Source of the DNA: Escherichia coli
Lineage (GTDB): Bacteria; Pseudomonadota; Gammaproteobacteria; Enterobacterales; Enterobacteriaceae
DNA: 62,123 nt
NCBI RefSeq assembly: GCF_003334815.1
Contig: NZ_QOWO01000026.1
Strand: one strand, 5' to 3'
Position numbers and translations under genes: made by a program. Shown in pieces: positions 9,693 through 62,123 of the stretch; positions within the stretch are counted from its first letter, which is position 1; every line of letters starts with the position of its first letter. The notes under the pieces are model-generated. The model did not search any database, was not told where the DNA came from, and saw nothing but the letters and a program-made list of their open reading frames with translations.

Positions 9693-12566
9693 ATGACACA
9701 GACGTTAAGCCAGCTTGAAAACAGCGGCGCTTTTATTGAACGCCATATCGGACCGGACGCCGCGCAACAGCAAGAAATGCTGAATGCCGTTGGTGCACAA
9801 TCGTTAAACGCGCTGACCGGCCAGATTGTGCCGAAAGATATTCAACTTGCGACACCACCGCAGGTTGGCGCACCGGCGACCGAATACGCCGCACTGGCAG
9901 AACTCAAGGCTATTGCCAGTCGCAATAAACGCTTCACGTCTTACATCGGCATGGGTTACACCGCCGTGCAGCTACCGCCGGTTATCCTGCGTAACATGCT
10001 GGAAAATCCGGGCTGGTATACCGCGTACACTCCGTATCAACCTGAAGTCTCCCAGGGCCGCCTTGAAGCACTGCTCAACTTCCAGCAGGTAACGCTGGAT
10101 TTGACTGGACTGGATATGGCCTCTGCTTCTCTTCTGGACGAGGCCACCGCTGCCGCCGAAGCAATGGCGATGGCGAAACGCGTCAGCAAACTGAAAAATG
10201 CCAACCGCTTCTTCGTGGCTTCCGATGTGCATCCGCAAACGCTGGATGTGGTCCGTACTCGTGCCGAAACCTTTGGTTTTGAAGTGATTGTCGATGACGC
10301 GCAAAAAGTGCTCGACCATCAGGACGTCTTCGGCGTGCTGTTACAGCAGGTAGGCACTACCGGTGAAATTCACGACTACACTGCGCTTATTAGCGAACTG
10401 AAATCACGCAAAATTGTGGTCAGCGTTGCCGCCGATATTATGGCGCTGGTGCTGTTAACTGCGCCGGGTAAACAGGGCGCGGATATTGTTTTTGGTTCGG
10501 CGCAACGCTTCGGCGTGCCGATGGGCTACGGTGGCCCACACGCGGCATTCTTTGCGGCGAAAGATGAATACAAACGCTCAATGCCGGGCCGTATTATCGG
10601 TGTATCGAAAGATGCAGCTGGCAATACCGCGCTGCGCATGGCGATGCAGACTCGCGAGCAACATATCCGCCGTGAGAAAGCGAACTCCAACATTTGTACT
10701 TCCCAGGTACTGCTGGCAAACATCGCCAGCCTGTATGCCGTTTATCACGGCCCGGTTGGCCTGAAACGTATCGCTAACCGCATTCACCGTCTGACCGATA
10801 TCCTGGCGGCGGGCCTGCAACAAAAAGGTCTGAAACTGCGCCATGCGCACTATTTCGACACCTTGTGTGTGGAAGTGGCCGACAAAGCGGGCGTACTGAC
10901 GCGTGCCGAAGCGGCTGAAATCAACCTGCGTAGCGATATTCTGAACGCGGTTGGGATCACCCTTGATGAAACAACCACGCGTGAAAACGTAATGCAGCTT
11001 TTCAACGTGCTGCTGGGCGATAACCACGGCCTGGACATCGACACGCTGGACAAAGACGTGGCTCACGACAGCCGCTCTATCCAGCCTGCGATGCTGCGCG
11101 ACGACGAAATCCTCACCCATCCGGTGTTTAATCGCTACCACAGCGAAACCGAAATGATGCGCTATATGCACTCGCTGGAGCGTAAAGATCTGGCGCTGAA
11201 TCAGGCGATGATCCCGCTGGGTTCCTGCACCATGAAACTGAACGCCGCCGCCGAGATGATCCCAATCACCTGGCCGGAATTTGCCGAACTGCACCCGTTC
11301 TGCCCGCCGGAGCAGGCCGAAGGTTATCAGCAGATGATTGCGCAGCTGGCTGACTGGCTGGTGAAACTGACCGGTTACGACGCCGTTTGTATGCAGCCGA
11401 ACTCTGGCGCACAGGGCGAATACGCGGGCCTGCTGGCGATTCGTCATTATCATGAAAGCCGCAACGAAGGGCATCGCGATATCTGCCTGATCCCGGCTTC
11501 TGCGCACGGAACTAACCCCGCTTCTGCACATATGGCAGGAATGCAGGTGGTGGTTGTGGCGTGTGATAAAAACGGCAACATCGATCTGACTGATCTGCGC
11601 GCGAAAGCGGAACAGGCGGGCGATAACCTCTCCTGTATCATGGTGACTTATCCTTCTACCCACGGCGTGTATGAAGAAACGATCCGTGAAGTGTGTGAAG
11701 TCGTGCATCAGTTCGGCGGTCAGGTTTACCTTGATGGCGCGAACATGAACGCCCAGGTTGGCATCACCTCGCCGGGCTTTATTGGTGCGGACGTTTCACA
11801 CCTTAACCTACATAAAACTTTCTGCATTCCGCACGGCGGTGGTGGTCCGGGTATGGGACCGATCGGCGTGAAAGCGCATTTGGCACCGTTTGTACCGGGT
11901 CATAGCGTGGTGCAAATCGAAGGCATGTTAACCCGTCAGGGCGCGGTTTCTGCGGCACCGTTCGGTAGCGCCTCTATCCTGCCAATCAGCTGGATGTACA
12001 TCCGCATGATGGGCGCAGAAGGGCTGAAAAAAGCAAGCCAGGTGGCAATCCTCAACGCCAACTATATTGCCAGCCGCCTGCAGGATGCCTTCCCGGTGCT
12101 GTATACCGGTCGCGACGGTCGCGTGGCGCACGAATGTATTCTCGATATTCGCCCGCTGAAAGAAGAAACCGGCATCAGCGAGCTGGATATTGCCAAGCGC
12201 CTGATCGACTACGGTTTCCACGCGCCGACGATGTCGTTCCCGGTGGCGGGTACGCTGATGGTTGAACCGACTGAATCTGAAAGCAAAGTGGAACTGGATC
12301 GCTTTATCGACGCGATGCTGGCTATCCGCGCAGAAATTGACCAGGTGAAAGCCGGTGTCTGGCCGCTGGAAGATAACCCGCTGGTGAACGCGCCGCACAT
12401 CCAGAGCGAACTGGTCGCCGAGTGGGCGCATCCGTACAGCCGTGAAGTTGCGGTATTCCCGGCAGGTGTGGCAGACAAATACTGGCCGACAGTGAAACGT
12501 CTGGATGATGTTTACGGCGACCGTAACCTGTTCTGCTCCTGCGTACCGATTAGCGAATACCAGTAA
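9693..12566 (+). CDS. gcvP: Glycine dehydrogenase (decarboxylating), P protein
   Basis: 957-aa ORF; PLP-lysine region [16 protein letters not shown]. Confidence 0.98.
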
Positions 12567-12588
12567 TTCACTGATTCGACTATTTTCT

Positions 12589-12612
12589 AAAGGCGCTTCG
12601 GCGCCTTTTTAG
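12589..12612 (+). terminator. Rho-independent terminator of gcvTHP
   Basis: aaaggcgc-ttcg-gcgccttt hairpin plus a T-run. Confidence 0.85.
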
Positions 12613-12643
12613 TCAGATGACAAAGTACAAAAGTGCTCAGACA

Positions 12644-12747
12644 GTCCCCTCGCCCCTTTGGGGAGAGGGTTAGGGTGAGGGGAACAGGCCGGCACTGGCG
12701 CGAATATTTACCCTCACCCCGGCCCTCTCCCTGAAAGGGCGAGGGGG
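12644..12747. repeat. Pair of inverted boxC-like GC-rich repeats
   Basis: cccctcgcccctttggggagagggttagggtgagggg and its imperfect reverse complement ccctcaccccggccctctccctgaaagggcgaggggg; this repeat type is common in E. coli intergenic DNA. Confidence 0.55.
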
Positions 12748-12832
12748 AAAAGCGTGCCAACATTGAAGATTGAGCCAGTTTGTTAGCAATCTCAAAGATA
12801 CGTCAACGAATTAATTTTTCTCGGAAAAACAA

Positions 12833-13576
12833 ATGGCTATAGCACTTGTGACTGGTGGCAGTCGCGGCATCGGGCGGGCAACTGCATTACTGTTGGCGCA
12901 AGAAGGGTATACGGTGGCGGTTAATTATCAGCAAAACCTCCACGCGGCGCAGGAAGTGATGAACTTAATAACGCAAGCCGGTGGCAAAGCATTCGTGCTC
13001 CAGGCGGATATCAGCGACGAAAACCAGGTCGTTGCGATGTTTACAGCAATCGATCAGCACGATGAACCGCTAGCAGCGCTGGTCAATAACGCCGGGATCT
13101 TGTTTACCCAGTGCACCGTTGAAAACCTTACCGCAGAGCGAATCAACCGAGTACTTTCCACCAACGTGACGGGATATTTTCTCTGCTGCCGCGAGGCGGT
13201 AAAACGCATGGCGCTTAAAAATGGTGGCAGTGGCGGCGCTATCGTCAATGTCTCTTCGGTGGCCTCACGGTTGGGTTCGCCAGGGGAATATGTTGATTAC
13301 GCGGCATCGAAAGGGGCGATTGATACGTTAACCACCGGACTATCGCTGGAAGTCGCCGCGCAGGGGATCCGCGTTAACTGCGTGCGGCCAGGGTTTATTT
13401 ATACCGAAATGCACGCCAGCGGCGGCGAGCCTGGACGCGTCGATCGCGTTAAGTCGAACATCCCCATGCAGCGTGGTGGACAGGCAGAAGAGGTCGCGCA
13501 GGCCATTGTCTGGCTACTAAGTGATAAAGCCTCTTACGTCACGGGAAGTTTTATCGATTTGGCGGGCGGGAAATAA
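12833..13576 (+). CDS. ygfF: Short-chain dehydrogenase/reductase family oxidoreductase
   Basis: 247 aa; TGGSRGIG cofactor motif and YAASK catalytic motif. Confidence 0.93.
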   Translation: MAIALVTGGSRGIGRATALLLAQEGYTVAVNYQQNLHAAQEVMNLITQAGGKAFVLQADISDENQVVAMFTAIDQHDEPLAALVNNAGILFTQCTVENLTAERINRVLSTNVTGYFLCCREAVKRMALKNGGSGGAIVNVSSVASRLGSPGEYVDYAASKGAIDTLTTGLSLEVAAQGIRVNCVRPGFIYTEMHASGGEPGRVDRVKSNIPMQRGGQAEEVAQAIVWLLSDKASYVTGSFIDLAGGK

Positions 13577-13632: not shown

Positions 13633-15093
<1,461 letters not shown>

Positions 15094-59676: not shown

Positions 59677-59750
59677 GCGGGCGTAGTTCAATGGTAGAAC
59701 GAGAGCTTCCCAAGCTCTATACGAGGGTTCGATTCCCTTCGCCCGCTCCA
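59677..59750 (+). tRNA. glyU: tRNA-Gly (anticodon CCC)
   Basis: 74-nt cloverleaf GCGGGCGTAGTTCAATGGTAGAACGAGAGCTTCCCAAGCTCTATACGAGGGTTCGATTCCCTTCGCCCGCTCCA with encoded CCA; acceptor stem GCGGGCG/CGCCCGC; anticodon loop CUUCCCAAG. Confidence 0.97.
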
Positions 59751-59864: not shown

Positions 59865-61511
59865 ATGATTCAGCTATCCAGCAGTCACAAACTTCCAGCC
59901 GTCTCCTATCTCTACCAGCGTAACGGCGTCTACTACTTCCGTCTTCGGGTCAGACAATCAAACAATGATAGAATGACCTCAATATCATTACGGACCAAGG
60001 ATAGACGCACCGCTATGGCTCACTCAAGGCACATCAAGGCAGCACTCAAGGCAATACACGCAGACAGACCCAACGCTACCTATGAGGAAATGAGGGAGCA
60101 CCTTAAGGACATCGCTGAGTGTGAACTGTCTATGGGCCGTTCAGATCTCTTTGAGCCTGACATGAGGGATATCTACCGGGACCAATACGGAGAACTTGGT
60201 GAGAGCCTTACCGATGCTCTGGCTAGTGAGCCGCTAAGTATTGACCAGCATCGTTACATCAATGAGGCCCTGAAGGTGCTAAAAGCCTGCATGAGGCGTA
60301 TCGAAGCGGGAGACAGTCAGCCTCTGATAGATTACGTCGATCATTTTAATGATATTGATAGGCAAGATAGCCAAGTAGCCTCTGTGTCCCTATCTGTTAA
60401 TGCTCCAGAAGTAAAACCAGAAGTAAAACCAGAAGTAAAACTAGAAGTAAAACCAGAAGTTACGCCTAGCATTACCATAGCGAGCCTCTTTGAGCAATAC
60501 GAAGCGGAGAATTATCAGAACTGGAAGCCTGCAACCTTAAGGGAAAACAAGGCGTCACACGCTGCGTTAATCGAAATATTCGACCATCTGGGTCTCAATG
60601 CAGACGCTAACAGGGCTGACATGCTTAAGGTCCGTGATGTGCTCCAGCAGTTACCTAGGAACCGTAAGCAGCGCTTCAAGGATGCCCCACTTGCTGACCT
60701 GTTGAGCCGTGAAGATAAGACAGATTGTCTGGATGTCGTTACCATCAACAACAAGTATCTTATTAAGATGGCTGCTGTCTTTAGGTGGGCTGTGCGCAAT
60801 GACTTGATTAAAAAGAACATGACTGAGGGTCTGGAGCTTAAAGTCCCTCAGCGTAAAGCCTCAGGGGCCCGTAACGCCTTCTCTACGGAGCAGGTGGGGC
60901 AACTACTGGTCGCAGCTAAGGCATACTCTCAGAAGACCTCTGGTAAGCCCTACCACTATTACGTTACGGCTTTGGCTGCTATCACTGGGGCGAGACTCAA
61001 TGAAATAGCCCAACTACAGGTCAAAGACGTCAGGACCACTGAGGCGGGAACCGTTTATATTCATATCAATGAAGACGATAGTAGTCTACCCGGTAAGAGC
61101 ATCAAGAACGCTCATAGTGACCGCTGTGTGCCTCTGGTCGATGGGGCCTATGGTTTTATATTGGCTGACTTTATGAGGTTGGTTGAGACCCGTAGAGGCG
61201 CTGATGGTGATGACGCTATGGTGTTCGATGGTCTTCGCCTCATGAAGAACGGTTACGGTGAGCAGGTGAGTAAATGGTTTAATCGGACGTTGTTGCCTAA
61301 AGTCCTCGCAGATCGTAGCGGCTTAGCGTTTCACTCGTTTAGACATACAGTTGCGACCCAGTTAAAACAACATGGGGTCGAGTTGGCGTATGCACAGGCG
61401 ATCATGGGGCATAGTTCAGGGTCTATTACTTACGACCGTTATGCTAAAGAGGTTGAGGTTGATAGGCTGGTCAATGTGATGGCTGATGTTTATAAGGAGA
61501 TTGTGGGGTAA
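59865..61511 (+). CDS. Tyrosine recombinase / phage-type integrase (548 aa)
   Basis: C-terminal catalytic signature: GARLNEIAQL (Arg), HSFRHTVATQL (His-x-x-Arg), GHSSGSITYDRY (His...Tyr nucleophile). N-terminal YLYQRNGVYYFRLRV arm-type domain. Adjacent to the tRNA. Confidence 0.9.
   Translation: MIQLSSSHKLPAVSYLYQRNGVYYFRLRVRQSNNDRMTSISLRTKDRRTAMAHSRHIKAALKAIHADRPNATYEEMREHLKDIAECELSMGRSDLFEPDMRDIYRDQYGELGESLTDALASEPLSIDQHRYINEALKVLKACMRRIEAGDSQPLIDYVDHFNDIDRQDSQVASVSLSVNAPEVKPEVKPEVKLEVKPEVTPSITIASLFEQYEAENYQNWKPATLRENKASHAALIEIFDHLGLNADANRADMLKVRDVLQQLPRNRKQRFKDAPLADLLSREDKTDCLDVVTINNKYLIKMAAVFRWAVRNDLIKKNMTEGLELKVPQRKASGARNAFSTEQVGQLLVAAKAYSQKTSGKPYHYYVTALAAITGARLNEIAQLQVKDVRTTEAGTVYIHINEDDSSLPGKSIKNAHSDRCVPLVDGAYGFILADFMRLVETRRGADGDDAMVFDGLRLMKNGYGEQVSKWFNRTLLPKVLADRSGLAFHSFRHTVATQLKQHGVELAYAQAIMGHSSGSITYDRYAKEVEVDRLVNVMADVYKEIVG
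60380..60399 (+). other. 20-nt match to the T7 terminal-repeat end plus the concatemer-junction class II pause signal (CTCTGTGTCCCT|ATCTGTTA)
   Basis: Compared with my recollection of the T7 left end (...GAGTGTCTCTCTGTGTCCCTATCTGTTACAGTCTCC...). Contains the conserved ATCTGTT heptamer at 60392-60398. Lies in frame inside the integrase linker region. Confidence 0.55.
60405..60464 (+). repeat. In-frame 12-bp tandem repeat x5 encoding PEVK-PEVK-PEVK-LEVK-PEVT
   Basis: ccagaagtaaaa x3, ctagaagtaaaa, ccagaagttacg read directly. Confidence 0.95.
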
Positions 61512-61631
61512 CCAAGCTGTCCACCCCCGGGGAGATTTGCCTTGAGGATGACCATAGTCGATGACCATATTGCTACAGGCCTGTGTGGTCATGTTTTTGA
61601 CTCACGGTTTTCACTACTTGTCAAGGATTTC

Positions 61632-61654
61632 TAATACGACTCACTATAGAGAGA
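61632..61654 (+). promoter_or_regulatory. Bacteriophage T7 RNA polymerase promoter (22/23 match to consensus)
   Basis: TAATACGACTCACTATAGAGAGA versus the consensus TAATACGACTCACTATAGGGAGA. All of -17..-1 is identical, +1 G falls at 61649, and the only mismatch is at +2. Confidence 0.85.
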
Positions 61655-61769
61655 AGGGACACAAAAAGTTTTCTCTCTTTCTCTCTCTTCTAGGACACTT
61701 GCTACTACTACTACAGGCCTGTGTGGTCATGTTTTTGACTCACAGTTTTCACTACTTGTCAAGGATTTC

Positions 61770-61792
61770 TAATGCGACTCACTATAGAGAGA
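61770..61792 (+). promoter_or_regulatory. Second T7 RNA polymerase promoter (21/23 match)
   Basis: TAATGCGACTCACTATAGAGAGA: A-to-G at -13 and G-to-A at +2; +1 G at 61787. Confidence 0.8.
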
Positions 61793-61860
61793 AGGGACAC
61801 AAAAAGTTTTCTCTCTTTCTCTCTCTTCTAGGACACTTGCTACTACTACTACAGGTAGCT

Positions 61861-61896
61861 CTAACTCTAACTCTAACTCTAACTCTAACCGTAACT
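61861..61896 (+). repeat. Hexanucleotide microsatellite (CTAACT)4 plus two degenerate units
   Basis: ctaact x4, then ctaacc and gtaact, read directly immediately after the 138-bp repeats. Confidence 0.95.
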
Positions 61897-62046: not shown

Positions 62047-62123
62047 CTGATGAATCCCCTAATGATTTTGGTAAAAATCATTAAGTTAAGGTGGATACAC
62101 ATCTTGTCATATGATCAAATGGT
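62047..62123 (+). mobile_element. IS10 outside end (first 77 bp; the element continues past the window)
   Basis: CTGATGAATCCCCTAATGATTTTGGTAAAAATCATTAAGTTAAGGTGGATACACATCTTGTCATATGATCAAATGGT matches the IS10/Tn10 outside terminus, including the pIN region with its dam GATC (62113-62116). The flanking 9 bp GGCTTAACT resembles the NGCTNAGCN target hotspot. Confidence 0.9.

Follow-up and report, generated by a model that had tools for sequence, protein, structure and literature searches.

The window analysed here, a 62,123-nt stretch of Escherichia coli DNA read on one strand (assembly GCF_003334815.1, contig NZ_QOWO01000026.1), contains the tyrosine integrase gene (int) of a chromosomal island inserted at a tRNA-Gly gene. 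Within this gene, the 20 nucleotides at 60380-60399 on the plus strand (CTCTGTGTCCCTATCTGTTA) are identical in 20 out of 20 positions to nt 149-168 of the bacteriophage T7 genome (NC_001604). The last base of the T7 terminal repeat is nt 160, and the 20-mer corresponds to the final 12 nt of that repeat plus ATCTGTTA, i.e., to the core of the concatemer junction (CJ). We read the 20-mer as a functional DNA-level mimic of the CJ of T7-group phages, placed in a tolerant linker of the integrase of a ~6.5-kb tRNA-Gly island that would exploit virulent phages. Given the comparisons presented below, a probability of roughly 0.6 is assigned to this reading.

The match to the T7-group junction

A preliminary description of the window, made from the letters alone, had quoted the T7 sequence and proposed a 20-nt identity spanning the terminal-repeat boundary and the ATCTGTT pause site; the quotation proved exact. 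It had also held that such an identity is not expected by chance, which agrees with the absence of any match to the 20-mer, even allowing 3 mismatches, among 100 dinucleotide-preserving shuffles of the window. When the island was compared by local blastn with ten phage left ends, the T7 match obtained E=1.3e-5, and exact matches of 19 nt to K11 and Whistle and of 17 nt to T3 were found, all of them at the terminal-repeat boundary. A blastn search of positions 60340-60440 against phage records yielded the left ends of Klebsiella Przondovirus phages, aligned over 59 nt at ~75% identity, with both the junction and the repeats that follow it covered.

All T7-group left ends fetched present one common layout at the repeat boundary, with CCTNARG(T)-type short repeats coming after it. 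The junction reads ...CTCTGTGTCCC TATCTGT TACAG in T7, ...CTATGTGTCCC TATCTGT TAGCC in T3, ...CTCTGTGTCCC TATCTGT TGG in K11 and Whistle, ...CTGAGTC[C/T]C TATCTGT AT[C/A]A in the Kayfunaviruses K1F, SH4, Dev2 and EV136_1, ...CCC TATCTGT AAGTCC in gh-1, and ...GGGC TATCTGT TCG in SP6; the K11 record labels this spot 'concatemeric junction'. The block that ends the terminal repeat, CTCTGTGTCCCT, is conserved in T7, K11 and Whistle, and closely so in T3. Hence, the 20-mer of the window coincides with a block shared by the phages at this boundary. Pausing of RNA polymerase (RNAP) at the junction is said to be linked to concatemer processing, reportedly in work by Lyakhov et al. in 1997 and by Zhang & Studier in 2004.

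In the class II pause/termination signal, ATCTGTT is strictly conserved on the non-template strand and preceded by A, C or T; the signal depends on orientation, and T7 RNAP halts 6-8 nt past it (bioRxiv 10.64898/2026.02.12.705533; 10.1101/2021.01.11.426313). Its recognition by T7 RNAP is reportedly lost upon any base change. The window reads TATCTGTT at 60391-60398, which places HATCTGTT on the non-template strand for transcription from the island T7 promoters at 61632 and 61770. The preliminary description had put these promoters 1.25 kb downstream on the same strand, the distance being ~1.23 kb, and had reasoned that T7 RNAP would reach the junction only on a circular or concatemeric form of the island. 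This reasoning holds.

As was also described beforehand, the 20-mer is in frame, being translated as A-S-V-S-L-S-V-N. Within the 548-aa integrase it lies in an interdomain linker that is otherwise hypervariable, 5 nt before a repeat encoding (PEVK)n. The copy number of this repeat differs among islands, and the repeat resembles the CCTNARG(T) short repeats found after T7-group junctions. The window contains the word CCAGAAGT 4-5 times, and 21 of 24 islands contain related words. Over the 60 nt that follow the junction, CCNNARG is enriched 7.6-fold relative to the rest of int, for a motif that was defined after inspection and that coincides with the P-E-V peptide. As judged from sequence, the 20-nt identity is not due to chance, and it is not accounted for by protein constraint alone.

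Conservation of the motif as DNA

Twenty further integrase homologues, with 65-86% amino acid identity in the best tblastn segment, were found across the Enterobacterales (Klebsiella, Pectobacterium, Lonsdalea, Rouxiella, Morganella, Enterobacter, Citrobacter, Buttiauxella, Shimwellia, Kluyvera, Proteus, Serratia, Edaphovirga and Shigella). The homologues are all located in islands of one kind, which carry phage promoters; individual islands are referred to by labels (L003 and so on). Two related E. coli islands at the glyU locus have 94% (L003) and 84% (L004) DNA identity to the window's, and a third, L005, likewise keeps the 20-mer. The exact 20-mer is kept, though flanks diverge, in L003, L004 and L005, and its first 12 nt, CTCTGTGTCCCT, are likewise kept in L008, L010 and L012. 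The 20-mer is unchanged in islands of E. coli, Klebsiella, Pectobacterium and Enterobacteriaceae RIT691 whose integrase proteins are only ~79-94% identical to that of the window (tblastn). TATCTGT is present at the homologous spot in nearly all relatives, and the core form [C/T]TATCTGT persists down to ~30% amino acid identity, with the Leu-Ser codons at the core always being CTA or TTA followed by TCT. HATCTGTT in the correct orientation is the most invariant stretch of the motif.

In the Enterobacterales set, codon entropy at the motif columns is low, yet not uniquely so within the gene, and synonymous conservation in this set alone is only suggestive. Distant environmental relatives were therefore needed to make the case, and were obtained from a metagenome scan with the island capsid-like protein as query. 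A separate candidate, namely that the CJ core is the single most conserved word of int, was rejected, given that several Trp/Met-rich words are common to more sequences.

The environmental integrases are 28-36% identical to the window's and mostly at most 50% identical to each other. Nine of twelve nevertheless keep CTATCTGT in the same frame, ~455-490 nt into int, and two more present CATCTGTA or AATCTGTA; L084 reads CTCTGTGTCCCTATCTGT, of which 18 nt are identical to T7. In the full-length environmental genes, CTA accounts for 2-11% of Leu codons and TCT for 12-30% of Ser codons (CTA reaches 13% in the partial L093 ORF, i.e., open reading frame). The probability of the observed codon pattern under a constraint on the peptide only is ~1e-11, considering six lineages that are at most 50% identical pairwise.

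The motif is also found in another part of the protein. In the divergent 528-aa integrase of L044 and L045, ATGTGTCCCTATCTGTTA, which agrees exactly with T3 over 19 nt, is located only 52 nt from the start of the ORF, and the motif occupies residues 16-21 instead of the position around residue 173.

Moreover, the flanks of the core vary along with the promoters of each island. Islands with T7/K11-type promoters have ...GTGTCCCTATCTGTT[A/G], i.e., GTGTCCC before TATCTGTT[A/G]. In a clade from Citrobacter, Buttiauxella, Shimwellia, Shigella and Enterobacter, the promoters match Kayfunavirus promoters with up to 94% identity over 36 nt, and the junction reads ...GTCTCCCTATCTGTAT(CA), i.e., GTCTCCC TATCTGT AT(CA), to be compared with ...GAGTC[C/T]CTATCTGTAT[C/A]A in Kayfunaviruses. 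The form TATCTGTAAGT, as in gh-1, occurs in L084, which has gh-1/T3-like promoter repeats; it also occurs in L078 and in the Proteus island L025, in neither of which was a gh-1/T3-like repeat seen. A search of IMG/VR for the Citrobacter-type variant CGTCTCCCTATCTGTA at phage ends retrieved nothing but the islands and unrelated sequence, and a blastn search of the region against phage records returned chance matches only.

Taken together, the invariant rare codons, the relocation, and the flanks that match helper junction variants are evidence that points to selection on the motif at the DNA level. The preliminary description had conceded that the motif might be universal among integrase homologues for protein-coding reasons. 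The motif is indeed nearly universal in this integrase family, but DNA-level selection is indicated as the reason, and neighbouring unrelated DUF6538-type integrases do not carry it at this position. In addition, the 12 nt upstream of the heptamer are conserved in spite of lying outside the strictly conserved class II motif, which favours a role in end formation over pausing alone.

The integrase is a mosaic. Distinct sets of E. coli genomes match only positions 41-556 or only positions 622-1640 of the int query, and the alignments break exactly at the junction and repeat linker, which suggests recombination between N- and C-terminal integrase modules at this linker.

The islands, their promoters and their cargo

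The integrase matches the profiles PF00589 (E=2e-18, 67.1 bits for a cut-off of 27.1) and PHROG_1 (E=2e-45), and its N-terminus reaches 25.8 bits against DUF6538, just below the cut-off of 27. The gene directly follows tRNA-Gly(CCC), downstream of xdhA and actS, which identifies the E. coli glyU locus. The features of the window are presented in Table 1.

Table 1. Features of the island and its integration site in the window.
Feature	Position	Strand	Remarks
tRNA-Gly(CCC), integration target	59677..59750	+	ARAGORN
Attachment (att) core, last 23 nt of the tRNA, TTCGATTCCCTTCGCCCGCTCCA	59728-59750	+	Related islands carry a second copy at their far end
Tyrosine integrase ORF, 548 aa	59865..61511	+	ORF list; DUF6538-like N-terminus, Phage_integrase catalytic domain
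Copy of terminal-repeat right end, CTCTGTGTCCCT	60380..60391	+	T7 nt 149-160, 12/12; mature right genome end
Class II pause/termination heptamer ATCTGTT (+A), preceded by T	60392..60399	+	T7 nt 161-168
12-nt tandem repeat CCAGAAGTAAAA, x4.7, encodes (PEVK)n	60405..60460	+	TRF; starts 5 nt past the 20-mer
138-bp tandem duplication, 2.1 copies, 98% identical	61573..61855	+	TRF; a T7 promoter in each copy
T7 RNAP promoter TAATACGACTCACTATAGAGAGA, -17 to +6	61632..61654	+	Exact 18-nt consensus match; +2 A instead of G
Second T7 promoter TAATGCGACTCACTATAGAGAGA	61770..61792	+	A to G at -13, besides +2 A
Insertion-sequence end, begins CTGATGAATCCCCTAATGATTTTGG	62047..62123	+	Interrupts the island ~250 bp past the promoter repeats

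The stretch at 62047-62123, which we take to be the terminus of IS10, dominates searches that include it: with it, the query has matches in 2097 of 5426 E. coli genomes and at 2123 places on plasmids. With the stretch left out, 363 of 5426 complete E. coli genomes (~7%) contain a related integrase, and none of the matches is on a plasmid.

Complete relatives show the extent of the element. L043 is a complete island of 6.4 kb with a 23-nt direct repeat of the tRNA 3' end at both ends, and repeats of 18-22 nt bound ~6.3-6.7 kb in L075, L078, L088 and L093. The order in relatives is the integrase, an optional DUF4145 gene, ~1 kb of non-coding DNA with 1-4 phage-type promoters, and then an operon composed of a Rha/Bro/KilA-N-like gene, a small ORF, a DUF6971 gene, and a gene for a conserved capsid-like protein of ~375 aa with the HK97 fold. 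Genes, promoters and junction are all on one strand. Among the five or six genes of the islands, no Pfam, PHROG or NCBIfam match to a terminase or portal gene was obtained; the only plausible structural genes are those of the HK97-fold and DUF6971 proteins. The DUF6971 protein (L008, 14194-14607) differs very little from PDB 5EUR, an 'uncharacterized protein' (E=7e-51), in either length or sequence. Over its C-terminal third it forms a helix-like segment of high charge; the protein might have a scaffold-like role. A scan of IMG/VR with the capsid alignment retrieved only relatives of 30-33% identity, from isolate genomes.

A putative circular form is represented by the metagenome contig L044 (ENA ERZ27247387, k141_403532), in which an exact 141-bp terminal overlap implies a circle of 6487 bp in the order operon, att, int with CJ. 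L045 and L046, from other samples, are permuted in the same way, so that the capsid-like gene lies upstream of int. A hairpin after the L044 capsid-like gene was considered for likeness to the T7 terminator Tphi, and was dropped because the terminator scan gave no call.

The promoter at 61632 matches the promoter regions of many Teseptimaviruses. Each T7 promoter of the window is followed by a pyrimidine-rich tract, TTTCTCTC x2.6, and the tandem arrangement may recall the primary origin of T7 (phi1.1A/1.1B). A perfect (CTCTAA)x5.2 array at 61859-61889 directly follows the promoter duplication, and is shorter in L006 and L007. Upstream of the promoters, GACTCAC[G/A]GTTTTCACTACTTG at 61598-61620 and 61736-61758 agrees in 15 of 20 positions with the left genome end of K11 and Whistle, TCTCACAGTTTACACTTTTGG. 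The word GACTCACAGTTTTCACTACTTG, ~35 nt upstream of each promoter, was tried as a phage left end and set aside as not general, since among the islands only the E. coli T7-type subgroup has it.

L004 (E. coli) and L008 (Klebsiella pneumoniae ATCC 13883) carry T7-, K11- and KP32-type promoters together with a single CJ, in four-promoter arrays of three specificities (K11-like, T7 and KP32-like) at 14392-14981 and 12262-12840, respectively. A single CJ beside several promoter types fits the phages in question, whose promoter specificities differ but which have 19 nt of junction core in common, and the combination suggests that one element may respond to several helper genera. Just upstream of a K11/KP32-type promoter (~12770-12800 in L008 and ~14916-14950 in L004), ACTCACAGTC-CTCTGTGTCTCC looks like the left-end and right-end words fused into a miniature junction without the repeat interior. 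Downstream of int, the environmental islands L075, L084, L093, L094 and L077 contain repeated words, e.g., AAAACCCTCACTA, ATTAACCCTCACC and CCCTCACTAAGGC, which presumably resemble promoters of the gh-1/T3 type; the island family would thus probably extend to hosts of other T7-like genera.

The glyU site accumulates tandem elements. In strain 21AR0133 (L003, 27423-29375), a second, unrelated integrase island stands in tandem after the T7-promoter island, which itself carries an IS5 insertion.

The optional DUF4145 gene is PD-T7-4/RAZR (PADLOC E=8e-99; 11624-12256 in L008). It directly follows or overlaps the integrase stop in L004, L008, L016, L041, L043 and L048, and is absent from many islands, including that of the window. 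RAZR is described in PMC13017515 as an abortive-infection RNase against T7 and T3 that is activated by the portal rings of both phages. The adjacency or overlap seen here agrees with the remark of Vassallo et al. (PMC9519451) that PD-T7-4 'often overlaps an integrase gene'. The searched passages of these two papers make no mention of the promoters, the junction motif or the capsid-like gene. RAZR travels on this T7-promoter island family.

Proposed role, alternatives and known systems

Under the proposed mechanism, phage RNAP made at infection would fire the phage-type promoters of the island, causing rightward transcription of the operon (Rha/Bro-like, DUF6971 and HK97-fold capsid-like genes), and would probably also prime replication by the phage replisome, as at T7 origins. 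On an excised circle or a concatemer, this transcription would pass through the att junction, enter int at its 5' part and meet HATCTGTT on the non-template strand, and phage RNAP would pause 6-8 nt past it, as it does at the CJ of T7. The copy of the right end beside it, CTCTGTGTCCCT, would let the helper's maturation/terminase machinery cut and start to package island DNA, with the cut expected between ...GTGTCCCT and ATCTGTT (the CCCT/ATCTGTT boundary). The DNA would perhaps enter shells that contain the HK97-fold protein of the island itself. The steps we infer here are pausing, cleavage, packaging and transfer. The signals are arranged such that, while the island is integrated, phage RNAP from the promoters does not encounter the junction at any point, and that on the circle or a concatemer the junction is the phage signal reached first past the operon. 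The promoters and the junction core are the only two kinds of phage-like cis elements in the islands.

A more specific form of this reading is held tentatively, at slightly less than even odds. In it, the 20-mer would be the packaging-initiation site of undescribed, widespread, capsid-encoding mini-satellites of ~6.5 kb, which would sense infection through promoters of multiple specificities, rely on helper enzymes for replication and transcription, and have junctions and promoters that co-evolve with the helper genera, i.e., Teseptimavirus/Teetrevirus/Przondovirus, Kayfunavirus and gh-1-like phages.

Several observations weigh against a CJ mimic. A blastn-short comparison of four islands with ten phage left ends matched only the 15-20-nt core and the promoters, and no general left-end site (TCTCACAG/TCTCATAG) was found in the islands. 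Phagemids of T7 reportedly need the terminal repeat. A cut at the CJ would bisect int, so that packaged DNA would need redundancy or concatemeric packaging. Many relatives have ATCTGTA, which departs from the strict T7 consensus, and this is consistent with a CJ mimic only if their own helpers, with the same junction variant, tolerate the change. The S-L-S-V peptide is itself conserved and may have some role at the protein level. Two integrase homologues do not have the motif at all (L023) or have TACCTGT in its place (L013), which also suggests that the integrase protein can do without it. Finally, the island of the window is cut by the insertion sequence and by the window end, so that cargo was seen in relatives only, and the circular assembly L044 comes from a relative and could also be obtained from tandem island copies.

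Among the alternatives, an unlikely though serious one is that the site is a signal for transcription only: a class II site which pauses or terminates phage, and possibly host, RNAP at the start of int, without a role in packaging. Such a site would end the operon on the circle, prevent rolling transcription or conflicts with replication, or throttle the integrase. The correctly oriented HATCTGTT is the part of the motif that varies least, a preprint reports that T7 RNAP and E. coli RNAP are both terminated at class II sites in vivo, and the place of the CJ on the circular map, first after the operon, would suit this role. However, the 12 nt of the repeat end are dispensable for class II function and yet are conserved and track the helper variants, and there is no U-run downstream of the site that would favour termination. 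Furthermore, an island that has a capsid-like gene and no terminase gene would be expected to require a packaging signal at some place, and no other similarity to a phage end is present in the island. It is less probable still, and in our view quite doubtful, that the motif is a decoy in an anti-T7 island, titrating or misdirecting the helper's complex of paused RNAP and terminase and thereby sabotaging maturation. Satellites commonly interfere with their helpers, and RAZR/PD-T7-4, a proven anti-T7/T3 abortive-infection RNase, is present in related islands (PMC13017515; PMC9519451). A decoy, however, would have no need to stay at one place beside att on a mobile circle; mobility is indicated by the att repeats, the capsid-like gene, the circular assembly and the conservation of the integrase, and many islands, including the window's, do not carry RAZR.

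An internal sigma-70 promoter, with the CJ as an extended -10 element that drives an N-terminally truncated integrase or downstream transcripts, is very improbable. A preprint reports that E. coli RNAP uses the T7 CJ as a promoter of the extended -10 (TGnTA) type, with 25% of the activity of a standard promoter, and TGTTA is present within the 20-mer of the window. The downstream hexamer is nonetheless poor (TAATGC or TAGTGC), TGnTA is lost in the TATCTGTAT and TATCTGTAA variants, which are many, and a sigma-70 scan found no promoter at the motif. The least credible account is that the 20-mer has no function in cis, and is a coincidence, the product of a constraint on the S-V-S-L-S-V peptide only, or an inert scar of recombination with a phage. 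The conserved SLSV peptide, the integrase mosaic with its breakpoint at the linker, and the codon entropy that is not uniquely low in the Enterobacterales set could be cited for it. These are set against an identity of 20 nt that exceeds chance, rare codons that are invariant at ~30% amino acid identity, a motif that is relocated to the N-terminus in L044 and co-varies with helper junctions, and the two homologues that do not have it.

No description of T7-promoter islands or of natural satellites of T7-like phages was found in the searchable literature, from which most subscription journals are excluded; the islands are apparently mini-elements of a family not yet described, one that would exploit T7-like phages. 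Among virulent phages T7 is the textbook example, and the most widely used expression system derives from it. If the CJ-mimic reading is true, the islands represent a new route for hijacking a lytic phage, in which promoters and the RNAP-pause/genome-end signal are both mimicked, and they offer a natural minimal maturation signal of the T7 group, ~20 nt conserved across genera, which bears on how RNAP pausing is coupled to concatemer processing. They would also explain the genomic context of the RAZR/PD-T7-4 defence gene, and show clearly how coding sequence can be overprinted with a cis-acting DNA signal. Given that a related integrase is found in ~7% of complete E. coli genomes and related islands in many Enterobacterales, such elements could then affect phage therapy with T7-like phages and phage-mediated gene flow.

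In comparison with the T7 CJ, the island site has the same 20 nt, the same orientation relative to transcription by phage RNAP, and, after it, repeats that resemble the CCNNARG-type repeats of T7, T3, K11 and Kayfunavirus. It differs in lying within a protein-coding gene of a chromosomal island, without the 160-230 bp of terminal repeat that precede the phage junction and without left-end sequence. Like satellites, the islands combine an integrase and att repeats on a small element with cis signals of a helper, in the absence of a full morphogenesis set.

The satellite P4 with its P2 cos site, the cos-type Staphylococcus aureus pathogenicity islands (SaPIs) such as SaPIbov5, and PICIs (phage-inducible chromosomal islands) have an integrase and att site, carry the helper's DNA-maturation signal, and use the helper's packaging proteins. 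The logic proposed here would be the same. The helpers of the island, however, would be virulent T7-like podophages, induction would proceed via phage-RNAP promoters instead of derepression, and the signal is an RNAP pause site plus a right-end motif inside an ORF, not a cos site or a packaging (pac) site recognised by TerS. Capsid-forming PICIs (cf-PICIs) are larger, and encode capsid, portal, head-tail connectors and terminase (small subunit). Compared with this gene set, the islands of ~6.5 kb have no recognised portal, connector or terminase genes; by its gene content, then, the island is not a cf-PICI.

PICMIs and PLE are likewise small integrative elements that exploit strictly lytic helpers, and the PICMIs are described as minimalist and as packaging concatemers (abstract of PMC10803314). 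Their gene content and hosts differ from those of the islands, and the abstracts report neither mimicry of phage-RNAP promoters nor a CJ mimic. An engineered counterpart is found in PMC13236587, which states, citing Chung & Hinkle 1990, that T7 replicates, packages and transduces plasmids with a T7 origin, pac site and terminal repeat. The natural gene set of the islands resembles such a phagemid in reduced form. Whereas the phagemids contain a defined pac region and the terminal repeat in full, the 20-nt core is all that the island has of the junction; T7 promoter/origin-type elements and junction sequence, which the phagemids combine on a small circle, are nonetheless both present in the island.

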